DNA of 6,797 nucleotides from a virus (Duplodnaviria > Heunggongvirae > Uroviricota > Caudoviricetes): positions 1-6,797 of IMG/VR virus record IMGVR_UViG_2690316105_000023. One strand, given 5' to 3'. Shown here in pieces: positions 1 to 6,797 of the stretch. Each line of letters starts with the position of its first letter. The stretch's first letter is position 1. The position numbers and the translations under genes were made by a program. The notes under the pieces were generated by a model. It was not told the origin of the DNA, searched no databases, and saw nothing but the letters and a program-made list of their open reading frames with translations.

Positions 1-315
1 TCATGATTCCACCTCTCCGGTTTTAACGTTGATGGTTGTTACCTGTTCCGCTTCGGCAATCTCCCGTTCTGTCAGCGTGGCAAAGTTTGCAGCTGCCGTT
101 GTCATGAATGCGCTTATCAGTTCGGGATTCTCCTTCGCGTATCCTTCCCGTGTGTGGCGGTCTATAACTTTGATTGCCACCTTTAGGGAAAGCTCTGTCA
201 TGTCTAACGCTTTATATTTTTGCTGTGTTCTGTCTCTGCGCATTTTGGTCATTTGTCGCCCCTGATTCATGTTTTCGGTCGGCATGTTTGTTAAGTGATT
301 TTGATGTATGCACAT
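1..315 (-). CDS. Hypothetical protein, 5' portion only (runs off the left edge)
   Basis: Open frame with two candidate starts: ATG 315 (GGGGG SD, 9-nt spacer) or ATG 252 (AGGGG SD, 6-nt spacer; MTKMRRDRTQQKYKALDMTELSLKVAIKVIDRH...). No stop within the window. Function unknown. Confidence 0.5.
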   Translation of the reverse strand: MCIHQNHLTNMPTENMNQGRQMTKMRRDRTQQKYKALDMTELSLKVAIKVIDRHTREGYAKENPELISAFMTTAAANFATLTEREIAEAEQVTTINVKTGEVES

Positions 316-361
316 TTATTTTTACCCCCTCGTTTAAAAAGTTTTAGGTTGTGGTGCACCT

Positions 362-587
362 CCTCTACCTCTCTACCTAATCATCTTTCAGGTCAGTAAT
401 GGCGCGGCTTTCAGATGGGTAGAGGGCTTTCGTGGCCCTCTACCCATCATCTACCCGCCCCTCACAAACAACCTTAATCATGGTGGAGGGGGTAGAGGGC
501 TTTTATTTGCCTTCTACCTGCCCCTCTACCCACTTATCATATTGAATAATTTATATTTATTTTCTTTAGGTAGAAGAGGTAGAGGGC
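362..587. repeat. Iteron cluster, putative origin of replication
   Basis: At least nine copies of the 7-bp core CTCTACC / GGTAGAG in both orientations: 363-369, 371-377, 418-424, 438-444, 450-455 (partial), 492-498, 512-518 (variant), 524-530, 569-575 (variant), 578-584. Includes the inverted pair GGTAGAGGGC-N7-GCCCTCTACC (418-444) and an AT-rich stretch at 532-567. Starts right after the primase stop. Confidence 0.7.
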
Positions 588-599
588 TTTTGTCTAAAA

Positions 600-2354
600 T
601 TATAAAAACGCGTCGCAATCCTCTGTTGTTGTCACATTGGTTTGCGTAAGTCCTTTAACCCTGCGCGTTATATATTCACATCCGTAAACTTTTGCCGCTG
701 GCTTCATGGCCTTGCTGAAATCAGCCACGTTTAGCGGCTTGCTTCTTCCTGCGTATGCCATAAACGCCAGATAGACGCGGTAAAGGCTGTTTCTGGTCGT
801 GTACTTCACTGAATCGCCACCGCCACCCATCATCAGGCCGCGCGCTTCCTCCAGAAAATTCAGGAACTGGCAAAACTCAATAACCGGATCCGTCTGTTGC
901 TTTATTGCCAGTGCTTCATCACCGTCACGCTGTTCCAGTAGTAAAGCCCGTGCCTTCTCAGGGTCGGCAAAGTTCGCCAGTAATCGGCGGATAATCACAG
1001 GGATTTCAGCCGCGACCTTCTCCGGCAAATCCTTGTCCTTTTCTGCCTCGCTAACGATATTGTCAAAGCGAAAAATAACCCGACGACGTGCCACGCCTCC
1101 GGCCCGTTCGGTGAATATCATCGGGTTGTTGTTGGTCGTCAGCACCACCGCCCTGATTACCGCCGTGAAACGCTTTTCATATTTCGGGTTAATTTCCACG
1201 GGGTCGCCGCCCGTGATTTTCTTGATGCCCGTTCCTTCGCCTGTATATTTCGGCTGGTCTGCCAGGACGATAAGACGACTCCCGACAACCTGCGCACGTC
1301 CACCAGCATCATCAAGCGATGTCATTTCAGCGCTTACCGTGTTCTGTTTCCCTGCCAGAAGGCTGGCTATGTGCGTGAATGTACTTTTACCGCTTCCGCC
1401 GTCTCCGGTGGCCTCAATAAACATCTGCCAGTCGTACCGGTTCGCCATAATCATGTACAGCGCGGCACATATACGCATCATCTTGCGCGGGTCTTTTCCG
1501 GCTGCGTGCTCAAGCCATTTATGAAAATTTGGCGCGTTATCGCGGATGTTCTCCCCTGGTGCTGGTGGCGTGTACTCAATACCGTTGTGCGTGGTGATCC
1601 AGTTCTCCGGCGTGTGCGGGGAAAATTCCCCCGTTTTCAGGTCAAGCGCACCATTGGCGAACGGCAACAAATCGCCGGACGGCTCGCCCATTGGTTCGGC
1701 AATAACTTTTAACGCTTCCACGGCGTTATTGATTACGCGCTTGCTGAAAGTGGCCCTGTGCTCTGAATAGATCGCCACCATTTCGCGGCTAAGTTCCATT
1801 GTGCTGACCGGACACCATACCCCGCCGCGCCATACGTGAACGATTTCACTTTCAGGATGTACGCAAACGCCATCAAAGCGATCGGCAAGCAGCTGCGCGC
1901 GCTCACTGTCCGCCATCTGCGAAAGTTGCGCCTTTTGCTTTACCGGAAGCTCAATGACCAGACCATCAGAAAGATTCTGGCGCTCACGGGCCAGATATTC
2001 GCGCCAGTTCTCCACCTTCTGACCGTGCATACCATCAGGGTAAAAATTTGCATCCTGTACGCCTGCCGCCGCCAGCTTCTGGCCAATCGCCTTTATCATT
2101 ACTGGCGCAAGATATCCGGCCCTGAATATGCGCACGGATTTTCTGCCTTCCGGCACAATTTGCAGCTTATCCAGTTCTGATAACTGCTGCTCCCCAAGCC
2201 ACACAGGAGGCTCATTATCTCCGGCCATACGCGCATCATGTTCCTGCCATTGTTTCGCGTGTGCCCAGGCATCACTACCCGCAAAAATAATGACTTCTGT
2301 TCCTTTGTGTTTTATGCCGCGTGACTGCTGTTTTACGTTCGGTGCCAGTTTCAT
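600..2354 (-). CDS. Primase/helicase-type replication initiator (P4 alpha-like / PICI Pri-Rep-like, SF3 P-loop NTPase)
   Basis: 584-aa ORF with AGGGG SD 6 nt upstream of the ATG. Walker A motif GDGGSGKST and Walker B-like RLIVLADQ are present; the gene sits directly upstream of an iteron cluster. Confidence 0.9.
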   Translation of the reverse strand: MKLAPNVKQQSRGIKHKGTEVIIFAGSDAWAHAKQWQEHDARMAGDNEPPVWLGEQQLSELDKLQIVPEGRKSVRIFRAGYLAPVMIKAIGQKLAAAGVQDANFYPDGMHGQKVENWREYLARERQNLSDGLVIELPVKQKAQLSQMADSERAQLLADRFDGVCVHPESEIVHVWRGGVWCPVSTMELSREMVAIYSEHRATFSKRVINNAVEALKVIAEPMGEPSGDLLPFANGALDLKTGEFSPHTPENWITTHNGIEYTPPAPGENIRDNAPNFHKWLEHAAGKDPRKMMRICAALYMIMANRYDWQMFIEATGDGGSGKSTFTHIASLLAGKQNTVSAEMTSLDDAGGRAQVVGSRLIVLADQPKYTGEGTGIKKITGGDPVEINPKYEKRFTAVIRAVVLTTNNNPMIFTERAGGVARRRVIFRFDNIVSEAEKDKDLPEKVAAEIPVIIRRLLANFADPEKARALLLEQRDGDEALAIKQQTDPVIEFCQFLNFLEEARGLMMGGGGDSVKYTTRNSLYRVYLAFMAYAGRSKPLNVADFSKAMKPAAKVYGCEYITRRVKGLTQTNVTTTEDCDAFL

Positions 2355-2650
2355 TTTTTACCCCTGAATCCGTTAATCATGGTTTTCAGCTTCTGGATGT
2401 TTGCCCGTGCCCTGGCGTTGCTGGTGGGCACGTTATGCGGCGCGGTCTGTACCAGAGAAAAATCACGCCGGAACTGATAAACAGGCATCACGCAATCATA
2501 TTCGTAACCTTCACGGCGGTAGGTTACGCGCCGTTCTTCCACGCCCTTAATCATTACCGTGCCGCCGTACTGGTCGCGGTAAATATCACCGCGCGTAAAT
2601 TTAGGGTGAGTGTTGCCACTGGCAGTTAAGCCAGAATATTTAAGTTTCAT
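2351..2650 (-). CDS. Hypothetical protein, 99 aa, translationally coupled to the primase gene
   Basis: GGAG upstream of ATG 2650; its TGA stop overlaps the primase ATG (ATGA). No family recognised. Confidence 0.7.
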   Translation of the reverse strand: MKLKYSGLTASGNTHPKFTRGDIYRDQYGGTVMIKGVEERRVTYRREGYEYDCVMPVYQFRRDFSLVQTAPHNVPTSNARARANIQKLKTMINGFRGKK

Positions 2651-2655
2651 TATTT

Positions 2656-2889
2656 TTATTCTCCGGTGTGCTGTTCTTTATATCTGTCGTGCAATAGATC
2701 TATTTCTTGCAGTTCCATTATTACAGGCTCAAGAAGCGTTATTAATGCCGTGGCAATTCTTGATTTTTGTTTGTCGCGTTCATTGTCGCCAAGTGTTTCA
2801 AGCCATATGCGCAATATTTCCAGCATGTTTTCACTGTGAGAAAGTGCAAGAAATGCGCGGTCTATTGTTTCGAGGTAAATATCACGCAT
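2656..2889 (-). CDS. Hypothetical protein, 77 aa
   Basis: GAGGATG SD about 6 nt upstream of ATG 2889; the gene start overlaps the preceding gene's stop. No family recognised. Confidence 0.65.
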   Translation of the reverse strand: MRDIYLETIDRAFLALSHSENMLEILRIWLETLGDNERDKQKSRIATALITLLEPVIMELQEIDLLHDRYKEQHTGE

Positions 2890-3328
2890 GGCTTACATCC
2901 TCAGGAAATTTTCTTCTGTAACGCGCCTCTGCCACATATTCCGCATAATCGGCGGCGATATTCAGTACATCAAGTCCCGTTGATTTATATTCTTTCGTGG
3001 AAAGTAAGAAAAAAGCCGCTCTAATAAGTTCTGGCATTGACGAAAGCGCATCAGCCGCATCATCAGGAACGCCGGAAAATTCCTGTTTCAGGGAATTAAA
3101 ACGATCATCACGCATAACCCCCCCATTTTCACAATCAGCAACAAGAATATTTTTAGCGTCATTCAGCGACCGCGTAGCGGTGTATCGGATATATTCCAGG
3201 GCTAACGTTGTCCGGTCTTTCTGTTCTTCTCCCTGCGCAAGCTCTGCCGTGCATTCAATATCAATAAGCGCGTGCATCAGCGTAGTGAGTGCGGCTGCTG
3301 CGTTCGGTGTGGTTTTATTCTGCAACAT
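2882..3328 (-). CDS. Hypothetical protein, 148 aa
   Basis: GGAG 7 nt upstream of ATG 3328; stop overlaps the next start (ATGCGTGA). No family recognised by eye. Confidence 0.7.
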   Translation of the reverse strand: MLQNKTTPNAAAALTTLMHALIDIECTAELAQGEEQKDRTTLALEYIRYTATRSLNDAKNILVADCENGGVMRDDRFNSLKQEFSGVPDDAADALSSMPELIRAAFFLLSTKEYKSTGLDVLNIAADYAEYVAEARYRRKFPEDVSHA

Positions 3329-3533
3329 ATCTTAACTCCACTGAACTTACGTATTTACACGGGTTTCCTTTTACCTGTCGCACACGGTAGGAATCGTTTT
3401 TAATCACTTCCGCTATTTGCCCAAACTTTTTTACCGCTGTACGGCGGCTCTTGTAGCGGTAAGTGTTTATCTCCCTTCTGCTCATTACCGCTTCATTGTG
3501 ATATCTGGTTATCACTATCAGCACTTCAAACAT
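3315..3533 (-). CDS. Hypothetical protein (72 aa from ATG 3533; ORF track starts at a TTG at 3563)
   Basis: AGGGGG 6 nt upstream of ATG 3533; product MFEVLIVITRYHNEAVMSRREINTYRYKSRRTAVKKFGQIAEVIKNDSYRVRQVKGNPCKYVSSVELRYVAE. Its 3' end overlaps the next gene start by 14 nt. Confidence 0.6.
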   Translation of the reverse strand: MFEVLIVITRYHNEAVMSRREINTYRYKSRRTAVKKFGQIAEVIKNDSYRVRQVKGNPCKYVSSVELRYVAE

Positions 3534-3696
3534 GACGCACCCCCTGACGAATACGGGCGACAAAAATCAGATGTGCGTGCGGCAACTGGGCGCGGGCTTC
3601 GCGTTCAGTGGCTGCGGTAACGGTGTAAATATCAATGCTGCTGTGGTGGCACTGCATAAAGCGCCAGACAAAGTAAGGGCGTGCGGATACAGCCAT
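3526..3696 (-). CDS. Small protein, paralog A1 (56 aa), unknown function; may instead be the C-terminal part of a longer ORF 3526-3990
   Basis: GGGAG 8 nt upstream of ATG 3696; product MAVSARPYFVWRFMQCHHSSIDIYTVTAATEREARAQLPHAHLIFVARIRQGVRHV, paralogous to A2. The stop overlaps the ATG of the next gene (ATGTTTGA). The same frame stays open upstream to 3990/4032, so a 154/168-aa fusion is an alternative. Confidence 0.5.
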   Translation of the reverse strand: MAVSARPYFVWRFMQCHHSSIDIYTVTAATEREARAQLPHAHLIFVARIRQGVRHV

Positions 3697-3861
3697 GTGA
3701 AAGGCTCCCAATTTAATGTTAAGGAGTCTCACCACTACGCTGCTAAACGGGGTGGCGAGACGTAACAGGGTTAGCAGACTGGCAAATTGGGAAACCAGCG
3801 AGCGCAAAGGCTCCCCCGTTACGCCCCGCCATAATGCGGGTATGGGTAGGTTTACGGACAC

Positions 3862-3985
3862 AAAAAAACCGCTTATCGGATATGGGCGGCTGTCCGCCAA
3901 TTTATTCAGGCTGCTAAACCCGGTCGCCATGTGGGCGACGGGTGAAGCATACAGCCCCGTGATAATTTTTTGCAAGCGGTTTTTA
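3862..3985 (-). ncRNA. Candidate structured RNA element between the two paralogs (speculative; possible immunity/attenuator RNA)
   Basis: On the minus-strand transcript a long-range helix (AAAAACCGCUUG pairing with AAGCGGUUUUU) encloses three local hairpins: GGCUG/CAGCC, a 10-bp ACCCGUCGCC/GGCGACCGGGU stem, and GGCGG-ACAG-CCGCC. It ends in a U7 run. It overlaps an open frame (MSKNRLQK...), so a coding interpretation is not excluded. Confidence 0.2.
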
Positions 3986-4180
3986 CTCATGATGTGACCC
4001 CTGACGAATACGAGCGGCAAATACAGCAACACAACCTGACGGGCAACGGCTACGCGCTTCGCGTTCCGTCCAGGCGGTTACGTGGATGATTTGAGATTCT
4101 CCGGCACTCAGGGCCAGAAAACGCCACACAAAGGCCGTTTGTGTGTGTACAAGGTGTGTTATATGATTTACGGCAACCAT
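3983..4180 (-). CDS. Small protein, paralog A2 (65 aa), unknown function
   Basis: AGGAG 5 nt upstream of ATG 4180; product MVAVNHITHLVHTQTAFVWRFLALSAGESQIIHVTAWTEREARSRCPSGCVAVFAARIRQGSHHE. Shares FVWRF, VTAxTEREAR and ARIRQG with A1, and the nucleotide differences in the conserved core are mostly synonymous in this frame. The stop overlaps a downstream ATG (3988-3990) in an ATGAGTAA arrangement. Confidence 0.55.
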   Translation of the reverse strand: MVAVNHITHLVHTQTAFVWRFLALSAGESQIIHVTAWTEREARSRCPSGCVAVFAARIRQGSHHE

Positions 4181-4209
4181 AACGGCTCCTAGTTTACGTT
4201 GTTGGTTAG

Positions 4210-4253
4210 AAGCCCTGCGAGTGGTAATGACACTTGCGGGGCTTTGCTTTTTT
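4210..4253 (+). terminator. Plus-strand intrinsic-terminator-like hairpin inside the 5' leader of the leftward operon
   Basis: 14-bp stem AAGCCCTGCGAGTG / CACTTGCGGGGCTT (4210-4223 / 4231-4244, two G-U pairs), 7-nt loop, then TGCTTTTTT (4245-4253). On the minus-strand transcript the same sequence is a 5' UTR hairpin preceded by an A-run. Confidence 0.45.
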
Positions 4254-4269
4254 AAGTGCTCTTGTGTTA

Positions 4270-4321
4270 AGGTGACCACCTAACAATAGAAAGGCTAATT
4301 CAATAGGTGACCACTTGTCAA
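4270..4321 (-). promoter_or_regulatory. Candidate leftward operon promoter with two direct-repeat operator-like sites (AGGTGACCAC)
   Basis: Minus strand: perfect -35 TTGACA (plus coords 4316-4321), 18-bp spacer, -10 TAGCCT (4292-4297). Identical 10-mers AGGTGACCAC at 4270-4279 and 4305-4314, each containing the GGTNACC palindrome, lie in the spacer and just downstream of the predicted start site. Confidence 0.4.
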
Positions 4322-4506
4322 CAATCAAACGCGATAAAAGCCCTAAAGGGGACGGGCAATCCCCACAATTCAGAATGCGAATTTCTCCAGAGCTAAAAGA
4401 GCAATTCGATAAAGAAGCACAGAGCGACGGCATAAGCCTAGCCAACTGGCTTAAAGAGTTGGGGCGTACTGAACTAAAGCGGCGCGGTATAGAACCCAAA
4501 GGATAA
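4315..4506 (+). CDS. Putative ribbon-helix-helix (CopG/Arc/MetJ-like) DNA-binding protein
   Basis: Segment RMRISPELKEQFDKEAQSDGISLANWLKELGRTEL fits a beta-strand / helix / helix RHH pattern. Start is uncertain: TTG at 4315 (AGGTGA 4 nt upstream) or ATG at 4375 (no clear SD), giving 63 or 43 aa. Confidence 0.45.
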   Translation: MSTIKRDKSPKGDGQSPQFRMRISPELKEQFDKEAQSDGISLANWLKELGRTELKRRGIEPKG

Positions 4507-4563
4507 AAACTATCAGCGCCGTGGTGTGAGGTATTACGGCGCATTGCTATGCAGGACAACACA

Positions 4564-4737
4564 ATGACCGATAAAGAATTGACCAAAACATTATCACCGG
4601 CACGGAAAAGACGGCGCAGAAAGATAGAGCATGAATCAGAAAGATTCGCGCCATGTGCTTTTGCCCTTGAGCAATTCCTTAAAGAGTACAGGGAAAAGCG
4701 CTCATTGCAGGTATGGCAACGAACTGAACCAGACTGA
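4564..4737 (+). CDS. Hypothetical small basic protein (57 aa from ATG 4564; ORF track starts at 4549)
   Basis: ORF MTDKELTKTLSPARKRRRRKIEHESERF... with AGGA 8 nt upstream of ATG 4564 and a KRRRRK basic patch. No family recognised; kept as low-confidence because it is co-oriented with the RHH ORF and followed by the 4833-4860 terminator. Confidence 0.3.
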   Translation: MTDKELTKTLSPARKRRRRKIEHESERFAPCAFALEQFLKEYREKRSLQVWQRTEPD

Positions 4738-4832
4738 TTGCATTGCCCACCAGCCTGATAGCGGCTATCATCCCCGTGCTTATGTTTGGGATCACACACA
4801 CAAACGGCGCAGCGTGTTATCTGTTCAGAAAG

Positions 4833-4860
4833 GCGGCTCCATTTCGGGGCCGCTTTTTTT
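4833..4860 (+). terminator. Rho-independent terminator ending the short plus-strand unit
   Basis: 8-bp GC-rich stem GCGGCTCC / GGGGCCGC (4833-4840 / 4846-4853, one G-U pair), 5-nt loop ATTTC, then seven T (4854-4860). Confidence 0.65.
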
Positions 4861-5006
4861 ATGCCTGAAAAACCCCAATTTTGTGGTTTTCCAGTCTCAC
4901 CAGGGCGAACGAATCCCCGCCCACGTTCTGGCGTATATTCAATCTTCATGGTTATAGCTCTGTGTTCAGATGATTGATGTGTGGCGGCTGTGTGCCGCCA
5001 GCGTGA

Positions 5007-5195
5007 TTAATGAACTGCCTTGCAGCTATCCTTCCAGGCCAGAACCTCGGATAAAGACCAGCCAACGGAACGACCGCCAAGTTTACGACGTGATGGGAAT
5101 TGTCCGGCCTTTTCCAGGCGGTAGCGGCATGAGCGGCTAAGGCCTGTTAGCTTTTCGCATTCTTTTTCACGTATAAACCGATCAGTGCTTAACAC
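5007..5195 (-). CDS. alpA: AlpA-family phage transcriptional regulator (excisionase-like HTH)
   Basis: 62-aa ORF with the AlpA signature EKLTGLSRSCRYRLEKAGQFPSRRKLGGRSVGWSLSEVLAW. GTG start preceded by a strong SD (AAGGGGG, 5-nt spacer). It sits immediately downstream of int, as in CP4-57-type elements. Confidence 0.85.
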   Translation of the reverse strand: MLSTDRFIREKECEKLTGLSRSCRYRLEKAGQFPSRRKLGGRSVGWSLSEVLAWKDSCKAVH

Positions 5196-5256
5196 TATTG
5201 CCCCCTTTCGTTTCTTAAAGAGTTATTTCGTGTTCTATTGCGTTGGGATGTGTCTG

Positions 5257-5285
5257 ATTGTGTCAGGATGATTCAGAGTTGGCAA
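5257..5285 (-). promoter_or_regulatory. Candidate sigma70 promoter for alpA
   Basis: On the minus strand: -35 TTGCCA (plus coords 5280-5285), 17-bp spacer, -10 CACAAT (5257-5262), about 55 nt upstream of the alpA GTG. Consensus matching by eye only. Confidence 0.3.
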
Positions 5286-5354
5286 ATGTTGAGGTCGTAT
5301 GGTTTACAGAAACAGGAATAATCAGGATAAAATCATTTAAATTCATGTTAATAC

Positions 5355-5386
5355 AAAGGCATAAAATATTGTTTCATGCCTTTTTT
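5355..5386. terminator. Candidate bidirectional intrinsic terminator between int and alpA
   Basis: Perfect 8-bp stem AAAGGCAT / ATGCCTTT (5355-5362 / 5376-5383) with a 13-nt loop, followed by T-run 5381-5386 on the plus strand and by a T-rich TTGTATT on the minus strand. It lies about 200 nt downstream of the int stop on the int strand. Confidence 0.4.
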
Positions 5387-5495
5387 CTCGCTATTTAAAG
5401 AGTGATTCGCTAGTGTATAAAAAACCAGTAACACATTAAAAATCAGCTACTTATAAATCCGTACACTTTTTCGTCTCTTGTTCGTAGTTGTTCCG

Positions 5496-5525
5496 CATTG
5501 TTGCTCATTGTTGCTCATTGTTGCA
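5496..5525. repeat. Tandem 10-bp direct repeat CATTGTTGCT x3 (third copy CATTGTTGCA) in the int 3' region
   Basis: Read directly from the sequence: cattgttgct cattgttgct cattgttgca at 5496-5525, flanked by further TTGTT-rich sequence. Confidence 0.6.
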
Positions 5526-5579
5526 TGTTGTATCTGTTCGCATATCCAGTATGCGCATACTGAAAAAACACGAAAAAAA

Positions 5580-6797
5580 TTATTTTCTTCTGGCTACTGG
5601 TAGCGTGGTTACGTTTTCATGTGTTCCCGCCAGTATCCCTAACCGCTCCATCCACATATCCAGCGCATTGCGTTTAGCATCCAGATAACGGGAATGATTA
5701 TAAACTCGCTGAATTCCTGGCATCTGATGACCTGTAAGCTGCTCCACGACATGCGGATCAACGCCTAAATCGTTCAGCATGGTTGTAAAGGTGCGCCGGA
5801 TGTCATGCAGTGACCAGTGAGGATGATTAAGCCTCCTGTGCGCTAATCTTCCATACTGCGATACGCTGGCCTCCTGTTTCACTTCCCCCAGCAATAAGCC
5901 CGTGTGCCTGTTCTGCTCCACCAGCTGCGTGACGAACGGCAGGATCGCTTCCGGTATGGGCCGGAATATTGCGACCTTCGTTTTGCTGTGCTCCTTCGGA
6001 ACGGTCCATAGCATTTCCGTAAAATCCCACTCCCCGATCTCCGATAGCCTCAGTTCTACCGTCCTGGCTCCGAAGACAATCAGGAGGCGGATTAACGCGA
6101 CGTAGTAAGGGGAAAATATTTTTTTGTCCAGTGCCTGCAATAATTCGCCAAGTTCTTTGTTACTTAAGACACGTTCGCTTATATCCGGTTTTTTCCCAAC
6201 GTCCGCCACGTTCAGATCGTCCAGAACGTTGCTGATTGCATAGCGCCGCCTACGGCAGAACTTAAGCGCCTGTTTGCACGCCTGTAGCACGAATCCGGCA
6301 GTAACAGGCGTTCGCTTTGCCACCTGGTCAAAACAGGCCAGCCAGTGCCGTAGCTCGCATTTATCCAGCGGCATAGCACCAATCTGCTGTATTACGTGAT
6401 TATTAAGTCGCCTTTTCAGGGCGATATAATCCACGCGGTTTTCCTTTACGTAATACTCAAGCCAGTAGGTGAGCGCATCGCCAACCGTTACGGGCTTTAA
6501 CGCTTCCTGTACGGTGTAATTCATCTCATGACGTGGATTTTTCCCCTCAGCCAGCCATGTGCGACACTGTGCGGCTTTTTCCCTGGCTGCTTTCAGGCTC
6601 AGATCAGGATAACTTCCCAGCTTAATGCGTTCGGGTCGTGTCTCCCTTCCCGTTCCGGCCCTGTATGTGAAATACCAGGTCAATTTCCCTGATGTTAAAT
6701 ATTTCACGCTCAGGTTTCCGCCATCACTATAAAACGTGTTTTTCTCCGCTGGCTTACCATGAAGTTTCCTTAGCAAGGTATCGCTCAGTTTGTTCAT
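5580..6797 (-). CDS. int: Tyrosine recombinase / site-specific integrase, P4-type
   Basis: 405-aa ORF. N-terminus MNKLSDTLLRKLHGKPAEKNTFYSDGGNLSVKYLTSGKLTWYFTYR is typical of the P4-integrase arm-binding domain; C-terminus has the catalytic-core signature (HDIRRTF ... HQMPGIQRVYNHSRY). The ATG lies on the last three bases of the window, so the upstream RBS and promoter are not visible. Confidence 0.93.
   Translation of the reverse strand: MNKLSDTLLRKLHGKPAEKNTFYSDGGNLSVKYLTSGKLTWYFTYRAGTGRETRPERIKLGSYPDLSLKAAREKAAQCRTWLAEGKNPRHEMNYTVQEALKPVTVGDALTYWLEYYVKENRVDYIALKRRLNNHVIQQIGAMPLDKCELRHWLACFDQVAKRTPVTAGFVLQACKQALKFCRRRRYAISNVLDDLNVADVGKKPDISERVLSNKELGELLQALDKKIFSPYYVALIRLLIVFGARTVELRLSEIGEWDFTEMLWTVPKEHSKTKVAIFRPIPEAILPFVTQLVEQNRHTGLLLGEVKQEASVSQYGRLAHRRLNHPHWSLHDIRRTFTTMLNDLGVDPHVVEQLTGHQMPGIQRVYNHSRYLDAKRNALDMWMERLGILAGTHENVTTLPVARRK

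Follow-up and report, generated by a model that had tools for sequence, protein, structure and literature searches.

A probable rearranged C4 antisense-RNA immunity module with an orphan icd gene in a phage satellite

Introduction

The 6,797-nt stretch of DNA analysed here, positions 1 to 6,797 of the IMG/VR virus record IMGVR_UViG_2690316105_000023 (hereafter the window), carries two diverged small open reading frames (ORFs) on its minus strand, at the head of a replication operon and at the place where phage P4 has its kil/cI/eta immunity region and phage P1 its c4-icd genes. A first-pass annotation, made from the sequence alone, had described the pair as tandem copies of a small-protein module under purifying selection, and had proposed that they form a protein-based or mixed variant of a satellite immunity switch. 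The question raised by the locus is whether it holds a new kind of switch or a known one in an altered arrangement. The mature C4 RNA is about 77 nt long, is processed from a longer transcript and acts as a repressor; in the work of Schuster on the one hand and of Ghisotti and Deho on the other, C4 processing, a translational block and Rho-dependent polarity are reportedly described for P1 and P4.

The analysis favors the second answer. With a probability of about 80%, the region is a rearranged P1/P4-type C4 immunity and early-control module of a satellite of the phage-inducible chromosomal island (PICI) type, in which an orphan gene, icd1, stands ahead of a cassette made up of the C4 RNA, its target boxes and a second gene, icd2. 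The kind of system is long known and its mechanism is unchanged; the architecture is a variant of which we found no description, with an orphan icd ahead of the cassette, and with tandem cassettes and chimeric deletions in relatives.

Results

A C4 antisense RNA and its target boxes

An Rfam scan of the window placed a C4 antisense RNA, the equivalent of P4 CI RNA, on the minus strand at 3836-3748, between the two small genes (RF01695, a family that includes P4 CI RNA; 74 bits against a gathering score of 45, E = 1.6e-13). The match is full length, spanning model positions 1-87 of 87, and the minimum free energy fold of the RNA (-45.2 kcal/mol) contains an outer stem and two inner hairpins that agree with the Rfam model. 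Within C4 lie the b' loop UCCCAAUUU (3792-3784, minus) and the a' segment CUGCUAA (3777-3771, minus). Upstream of C4, the a1/b1 target element, the equivalent of P4 seqA, lies at 3897-3952 (minus), in an inverted repeat, with a1, UUAGCAG, at 3917-3911 and b1, AAAUUGG, at 3903-3897; RF03163 matches it at 3952-3903, correctly placed and oriented (44.4 bits, gathering score 46.7, E = 6e-9), and orthologous copies score 42.7-48.5 bits on the same model. This element overlaps an IsrK-like unit (3939-3862, minus), which scores 37.6 bits on RF01394, below that family's gathering score of 50, and which ends in a weak terminator-like hairpin with a U-run (3862-3890, minus; fold z = -1.4); the unit with its hairpin is collinear with P1. 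The Rfam order on the minus strand is a1b1 and the overlapping isrK-like unit, then C4. Downstream of C4 come a2, UUAGCAG (3746-3740, minus), and b2, AAAUUGGGA (3714-3706, minus), which lies in an inverted repeat and overlaps the Shine-Dalgarno sequence (SD) of icd2, GGGAG at 3709-3705.

The first-pass annotation had found no inverted complementary element of the kind that a P4-type mechanism needs; such elements are in fact present. The b' loop is complementary to b2 at 9 of 9 nt, across the icd2 SD, and to b1 over 7 nt, and a' is complementary to a1 and to a2 over 7 nt each. Relative to shuffled controls, the predicted duplex of the b' loop with the icd2 leader (-12.3 kcal/mol, z = -3.1) and that of the a' segment with a1b1 (-16.0 kcal/mol, z = -2.8) are both stable, the z-scores of the loop/target duplexes being -3.1, -2.0 and -2.8. 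The duplex with the icd1 leader reaches only -4.5 kcal/mol (z = +0.2), which is background level, and the two modules are therefore not equivalent: C4 is predicted to target icd2 and to leave icd1 untargeted. When the P1-style arrangement is sought at each gene, icd2 has it, with b2 of the adjacent C4 covering the SD and a stop codon that overlaps the next start, as in P1, whereas at icd1 the overlap with an ATG is present and the C4 target is absent.

An exact 10-mer, GGGAGCCTTT, occurs on the minus strand at 3709-3700 and at 3815-3806. Allowing up to one mismatch, 0.42 matches are expected by chance and two or more were seen in 8 of 200 shuffles, a borderline result. The copy at 3815-3806 had been taken for a third, degenerate module without a start codon; it belongs to hairpin 1 of C4 and is not the remnant of an ORF. 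Read in plus coordinates, the same 10-mer (GGGAGCCUUU) covers the icd2 ribosome-binding site (3700-3709) and C4 hairpin 1 (3806-3815) in the same sense, the two copies being non-complementary, and P1 has only a partial counterpart (GAGGC).

Directly after the icd1 stop and upstream of a1b1 lies a candidate immunity promoter, TTGCAA-18 nt-TATGCT (3946-3975, minus). Because TATGCT aligns with the annotated -10 element TATAGT of the P1c4 promoter (P51b) of P1 and with the TATAGT of P4, C4 may have a weak promoter of its own, a candidate for a constitutive immunity promoter.

Two observations stand beside these. Between C4 and the terminator-like hairpin, P1 and the window share an invariant 18-nt block, TTTTTGTGTCCGTAAACC (3852-3869, minus), set in DNA of only about 75-80% identity; the block may serve in processing or in protein binding. 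Rfam matches to MIR2617 (507-588) and rnk_pseudo (4133-4253) were weak and were dismissed as chance or generic terminator matches.

Co-variation of C4 loops and targets

A pattern scan of IMG/VR for the second hairpin of C4 returned 120 loci on viral contigs (L005-L124), which together with P1 and the window make 122 C4 copies. These hold 21 combinations of b' loop and a' dinucleotide, and the specificity code is combinatorial, with at least 14 b' loops and 2 a' variants; in nearly all of the copies, b1, b2, a1 and a2 fit the loops of their own C4. Between P1 and the window, b', b1 and b2 change jointly, as do a', a1 and a2. The same is seen over a far shorter distance in an island of E. coli JNEC-KY203 (L001), which is 96% identical to the window and in which b', b1 and b2 have been switched together (L001 6560-6830). 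Since the loops and their four targets co-vary in this manner, including in the L001 switch, there is strong evidence, from sequence comparison, that C4 pairs with the four boxes and that these define immunity specificity.

The arrangement around C4 in the window is rare. The only icd detected is the one downstream of C4 in 86 of the 96 loci with adequate flanks, as in P1 and P4, and in the cases inspected a promoter stands directly upstream of a1b1. An icd upstream as well as downstream was found at only 7 C4 copies, the window included.

Two paralogous Icd-like proteins

The upstream gene, icd1 (4180-3983, minus), encodes a 65-amino-acid (aa) Icd-like protein, with its ATG at 4180-4178, its stop at 3985-3983 and the SD AGGAG at 4190-4186; the downstream gene, icd2 (3696-3526, minus), encodes a 56-aa Icd-like protein, with its ATG at 3696-3694 and its stop at 3528-3526. 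Most of what had been described for the pair was borne out, including the coordinates, the SDs, each of which lies within a predicted hairpin, and the motifs FVWRF, VTAxTEREAR and ARIRQG common to both proteins, which are identical at 25 of 54 aligned residues (46%; BLASTP E = 5e-13). The overlaps with the next start are likewise real: ATGAGTAA at 3990-3983 (minus) joins the icd1 stop to an ATG, and ATGTTTGA at 3533-3526 (minus) joins the icd2 stop to the ATG of the next gene. A profile search of both peptides, suggested at the outset, placed them in NCBIfam NF033153, "host cell division inhibitor Icd-like", with 64.7 bits for icd1 and 55.1 bits for icd2 against a curated cut-off of 25 bits. 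The residues F, WRF, V, A, TE, EAR, P, F and AR are invariant in an alignment of icd1, icd2 and P1 Icd. The two genes fall into separate clades, icd2 scoring higher than icd1 against P1 Icd (109 and 73), and the icd2 type is found also in satellites with a single icd. A database search with icd1 yielded 111 homologue clusters, of which almost all come from E. coli or Shigella and carry the name Icd-like already.

Purifying selection had been argued from synonymous differences between the two copies. The codon pairs listed in support are genuine, 9 of the 25 identical residues being encoded by different codons, but over the whole paralogue alignment, with 57% nucleotide identity, differences are spread across codon positions (22/21/25) and the Nei-Gojobori dN/dS is about 0.68 with dS near saturation, so the signal of selection is weak there. 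It is better seen in orthologues, each in its own frame, from pN/pS and the excess of third-position changes: among the 8-9 related loci compared, pN/pS is 0.33 for icd1 (9 distinct sequences) and 0.44 for icd2 (8 distinct sequences), and the variable sites are most numerous at third positions (15/11/27 and 16/17/29, respectively). The minus-strand frame of both genes is thus conserved in related islands, and the clean Rfam match, which had been named as a finding that would reduce the repeats to pure RNA elements, accounts for the intergenic repeat while the ORFs stay coding. By these measures icd1 and icd2 are real, selected, paralogous proteins of the P1 Icd family, and inhibition of host cell division by their products is predicted from family membership.

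That the two proteins are themselves the immunity switch, as a protein-based or mixed pair of regulators such as operon repressors, is very unlikely. Both are conserved, and the PHROGs families that they match (phrog_1743 and phrog_6196) bear the tag "transcriptional repressor", but this label probably goes back to a legacy P4 coding sequence, "cI gene product", laid over the CI RNA; the P4 record annotates a coding sequence spanning the CI RNA as "transcriptional repressor", and the family is curated as the cell-division inhibitor Icd. Moreover, a complete RNA switch with co-varying targets, beginning with a1b1 upstream of a canonical C4, sits between the ORFs, and relatives function with one icd and without C4.

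Modular variants in related islands

In five of the seven C4 copies with an upstream icd (L024, L047, L066, L087 and L100), two complete isrK/a1b1-C4-icd modules stand in tandem. The extra module has an isrK unit of 63-66 bits, which passes the gathering score, and a second C4 of 75-79 bits with a different specificity and matching a2/b2, the first C4 lying about 480 nt upstream of the second; these loci carry what reads as two antisense-RNA locks in series. The first C4 is absent in the window, L026, L001 and L127, and L066 has a truncated window-type icd1 fragment ahead of its two full modules. In an island of E. coli O157:H7 strain 8368 (L126, 4001-4376), the control region, hairpin and icd1 are 97-99% identical to those of the window, and C4 and icd2 are lacking; the sequence parts from the window immediately past a common CGTATTCGTCAGGGG block, and icd1 is coupled directly to downstream small ORFs and a DUF927 primase. 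Chimeras of the icd1 N-terminal and icd2 C-terminal parts occur in several protein clusters (P0064, P0074, P0078, P0094 and P0096). The one whose context was examined, at L144 3001-3195 (GCA_019700725.1), is the single icd of an otherwise similar island without C4, and its crossover lies in the GAACGCGAAGC (TEREA) block common to both icd genes; it would be the expected product of recombination between icd repeats, deleting the RNA cassette of about 460 bp. A scan of genome contigs with back-translated Icd patterns, which were too specific, gave one locus, L004 of Shigella flexneri, of the icd1-only type.

As relatives have two tandem modules, icd1 alone or a chimera without C4, the sequence variants identify the icd paralogues as recombination handles for gain, duplication and loss of the RNA cassette. 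Truncated and chimeric copies, and the loss by icd1 of a C4 of its own, unlike in the tandem loci, could be taken to mean that icd1 has no function and is the remnant of a decayed upstream module on its way to loss. We consider this improbable: the pN/pS of 0.33 and the third-position excess, an intact icd1 with SD in all loci examined, the 111 protein clusters of icd1 type and the role of icd1 as sole icd and first cistron of the operon in O157:H7-type islands all argue against decay.

The open frame from icd1 across C4

The ATG that overlaps the icd1 stop (3990-3988, minus, within ATGAGTAA) opens a 381-nt frame that runs via a1b1, the terminator-like hairpin and C4 and continues in frame into icd2. 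Ribosomes leaving icd1 might re-initiate here and read through into icd2, a translational bypass in which translation would melt both terminator and C4 and would reach icd2 without the C4-blocked SD; icd1 would then act as an override independent of C4, triggered by derepression of the Arc-controlled promoter. Both the ATG and a frame open into icd2 were seen at every double-icd locus (9 of 9), and two lineages among these differ by compensating +1/-1 indels, in the terminator loop and the b' loop, that change the peptide and restore the frame. The frame is also open through the first C4 (A) into icd1 in the five tandem loci, and in P4 through seqA and CI into the Icd-like ORF. Experimental precedent is found in Salmonella orf45 of the isrK locus (PMC4825925). 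Set against this, the nine double loci are related by descent, and a relic of the coupling present in L126 (ATGCTTAA) would readily account for the ATG. Nor did the open frame hold up as a general selected feature, as it spans C4 in only 19 of 60 distinct C4-icd regions; about one third is what chance would give, because the conserved RNA has one or two stop-free frames, randomly phased. The NCBI Prokaryotic Genome Annotation Pipeline (PGAP), as used in RefSeq, calls the frame a 155-aa "Icd-like" protein in L001 (6531-6998) and a frameshifted pseudogene in L127 (7191-7655), the latter call again weighing against read-through. On balance we regard bypass as unlikely. Were it true, a promoter controlled by a protein repressor could defeat the RNA lock in cis, in analogy to orf45, and relatives with tandem modules would chain two RNA locks of different specificity.

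The icd1 leader and the upstream control region

In the leader of icd1, a box GTAAACTAGGAG (4197-4186, minus) includes the SD AGGAG in a b2-like position, with 2 mismatches to the resident b' loop. It is invariant in the window, L127, L001 and L126, though L001 has changed b', b1 and b2, and it thus shows no co-variation with the C4 loops. The b2-like box, GUAAACUAGGAG, could nonetheless be a live target in trans, of a C4 of other specificity carried by a co-resident helper phage or satellite, which would give cross-element immunity. The leader is indeed built like an a2/b2 leader, with a hairpin and then a box over the SD; it resembles, by eye, the C4(A)-controlled icd1 leaders of the tandem loci (CAACGTTACAGGAGG versus CAACGTAAACTAGGAG), and boxes of the form xxxCTAGGA occur in other specificity types. 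Yet a pattern search of IMG/VR for a C4 with a complementary loop (GGTTTCCTAGTTT..GCC) gave 16 matches, all unrelated sequences and none C4-like; there is no a2-like box upstream of icd1; and in L144 the box differs (GTAAAGGAG), again without a nearby C4. Control of icd1 in trans is accordingly highly improbable, and exemption of icd1 from C4 is the reading that we retain.

Upstream of icd1, a strong hairpin followed by a T-run (4209-4253, plus) resembles an intrinsic terminator; on the minus strand it is the 5' leader hairpin of icd1. Read on the plus strand, the stem is a perfect 15 bp, then TTTGCTTTTTT (-26.8 kcal/mol, z = -7.6), and on the minus strand it has two C.A mismatches; compensatory changes preserve it in L127, L026 and L144. 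The hairpin does not stand at the end of any plus-strand gene, and a transcript antisense to icd1 and C4 is one candidate for it.

Between this hairpin and a divergent regulator gene lies a control region (4254-4330) in which an inverted repeat resembling an operator, AGGTGACCAC(C/T)T, occurs twice, at 4270-4281 and at 4305-4316; the two AGGTGACCACCT repeats sit 35 bp apart. The promoter of the icd1 operon is presumed to lie within it, without a good sigma-70 consensus. The region is identical in L001 and L126, and L127 and L026 have another promoter/operator. The divergent gene (4315-4506, plus; likely ATG at 4375) encodes an Arc-like, ribbon-helix-helix repressor (phrog_228, E = 5e-7; Pfam HicB at 20.4 bits against a gathering score of 21), and in related islands this place is taken by another regulator (YlcI/YnfO, DUF3950) and another operator. 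A second plus-strand ORF follows at 4549-4737 (phrog_21027, E = 1.6e-15). A minus-strand ORF of 247 aa at 4206-4949 has no Pfam or PHROG match, unlike the plus-strand ORFs that it overlaps, and was set aside as a probable shadow ORF; PGAP annotates it in the O157:H7 and JNEC-KY203 relatives.

The downstream operon and distribution of the island

The position of the ORFs at the head of a replication operon was confirmed. The icd2 stop overlaps, within ATGTTTGA, the start of a 72-aa ORF predicted to be translationally coupled to icd2 (3315-3533, minus; phrog_9805, E = 1.5e-22), after which the minus-strand operon continues with genes at 2882-3328 and 2656-2889, a DUF4222 gene (2351-2650) and a primase gene (600-2354), the last two recognized by Pfam/NCBIfam as DUF4222 and as a D5_N / P4-family primase. 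Besides this primase and the immunity module, the window contains int, alpA and the control region. Copies of the whole window about 95% identical to it are present in 53 E. coli genomes and continue into capsid, protease and portal genes. The int, alpA and primase genes in the window, together with the capsid genes of close relatives, indicate by gene content a capsid-forming PICI-type satellite and not one of P4 type. At least 80% of the icd1-C4-icd2 segment is covered in 69 of 5,426 complete E. coli genomes.

Discussion

Given the part identities, complementarity, co-variation, overlapping cistrons and exclusion of icd1 from C4 pairing that are observed here, we infer C4 processing, the translational block, coupling, Rho-dependent polarity and the roles of the promoters by analogy, drawing on the notes of the P1 GenBank record, PMC4825925 and the classical P1/P4 work. 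The minus-strand transcript would carry, in order, icd1, the a1/b1 element with the weak IsrK/seqA-like terminator, a C4 RNA of about 89 nt, a2/b2, icd2 and the coupled replication genes. C4 would be excised from the transcript, as in P1 and P4, and its b' loop and a' segment would pair with b2 and a2, covering the icd2 SD and leaving icd2 untranslated. As the downstream genes would depend on icd2 translation, through overlapping stops and starts and Rho polarity, the replication operon would be silent. The a1/b1 element, on the same RNA or on a short, terminated IsrK-like RNA, would compete for C4. In this scheme icd1 would be a paralogue left upstream of the cassette by modular recombination, no target of C4, and placed downstream of the operator-bearing control region that adjoins the divergent Arc-like repressor gene; from this position and its exemption from C4, the island would combine a protein-controlled entry with an RNA lock in series. 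The icd genes, direct repeats about 460 bp apart, would be the sites through which the RNA cassette is gained, duplicated and lost.

Several points weigh against this reconstruction. The hairpin upstream of icd1 is better as a plus-strand terminator than as a minus-strand structure, and the model leaves it unexplained. The a1b1 match sits 2.3 bits under the Rfam gathering score, and the isrK match is well under its own. The candidate promoter TTGCAA-18-TATGCT scores 8/12, under the scan threshold, and a sigma-70 scan of 3450-4600 found no consensus site of at least 9/12. C4 processing, the promoters and the terminator are all inferred, and binding of the Arc-like protein to the operator-like repeats is assumed. 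Finally, the role of icd1 may be that of a functional Icd, of a leader cistron or of both.

The rearranged C4 module, as read here, sets right the idea that the satellite has a new, protein-based immunity switch, which was plausible but mistaken. It points to classic C4/CI antisense-RNA immunity in a capsid-forming PICI-type satellite carried by about 1% of complete E. coli genomes, including Shiga toxin-producing (STEC) lineages, in which public annotations miss the C4 RNA and mis-call icd2 as a 155-aa protein or a pseudogene. Natural relatives with a duplicated, single or deleted cassette offer a concrete picture of how satellite immunity may be swapped or lost, and in the specificity code three or four sites invariably change in concert, even where two islands are 96% identical. 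In the open-access literature we found no paper describing a double icd or tandem C4 modules; in surveys of satellites, Icd-like genes appear only under accessory genes, or RNA immunity goes undiscussed.

The gene pair as such is already in public annotation, PGAP giving the satellites of the 69 E. coli genomes above the label "host cell division inhibitor Icd-like protein (x2)"; the C4 RNA and its targets are unannotated there, and icd2 is often extended to 155 aa across C4 or given as a frameshifted pseudogene. The Gifsy-1 locus of Salmonella, isrK - orf45/STnc1160 - anrP, is alike in that the a1b1-plus-terminator unit resembles IsrK (RF01394), a processed C4-like RNA follows downstream, and an ORF that spans this RNA is coupled to the gene after it. 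There, orf45 is translated across the C4-like STnc1160 and is needed, via AUGA coupling, for translation of anrP, and its nucleotide sequence is conserved while its peptide is not (PMC4825925). The window differs in that its copy of the unit lies under the isrK gathering threshold and that the downstream cistron is Icd-like instead of an antirepressor.

The positional analogy with P4 cI/kil and P1 c4-icd, drawn in the first-pass annotation, proved literally correct, in that both ORFs are Icd-like and the layouts are collinear. P4 runs PLE - seqA - CI RNA - seqC - kil/eta - epsilon - alpha, and the window from a1 to icd2 is collinear with seqA-CI-seqC-kil: isrK/a1b1 (seqA) is followed by the CI RNA, which scores 74.9 bits on RF01695, and the ORF that comes first after CI shows the Icd motif pattern (by eye, not scored with a hidden Markov model) and a stop overlapping epsilon. 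Both are satellites with int and an AlpA-type regulator, and in both the controlled operon ends in a P4-family (alpha) primase. P4 differs in having one icd-like gene, with the promoter directly upstream of seqA; its psu, delta and sid are not in the window, which ends just past the primase, and the close relatives L001 and L127 encode a major capsid protein, head decoration protein, prohead protease and portal downstream of the primase, in the manner of capsid-forming PICIs.

The P1/P7 immI region is different in its cargo and its upstream control, having the antirepressor genes ant1/2 in place of a satellite replication operon with DUF4222 and primase, and the C1 operator Oc4 in place of the Arc-like repressor region; its loop is ACUAAC with UC in a', against UCCCAAUUU and CUGCUAA in the window, and the window adds an icd paralogue between the upstream control region and a1b1. 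The likeness extends to the rest of the module: in the annotated P1 record a1, b1, c4, a2, b2 and icd follow in matching order and spacing, b2 covers the icd SD, the stop of icd and the start that follows overlap, the -10 element of the candidate promoter aligns with P1c4, and the P1/P7 c4 region is 75-81% identical in DNA sequence to the window from a1 through C4 to a2 (3927-3738), the invariant 18-nt block included.

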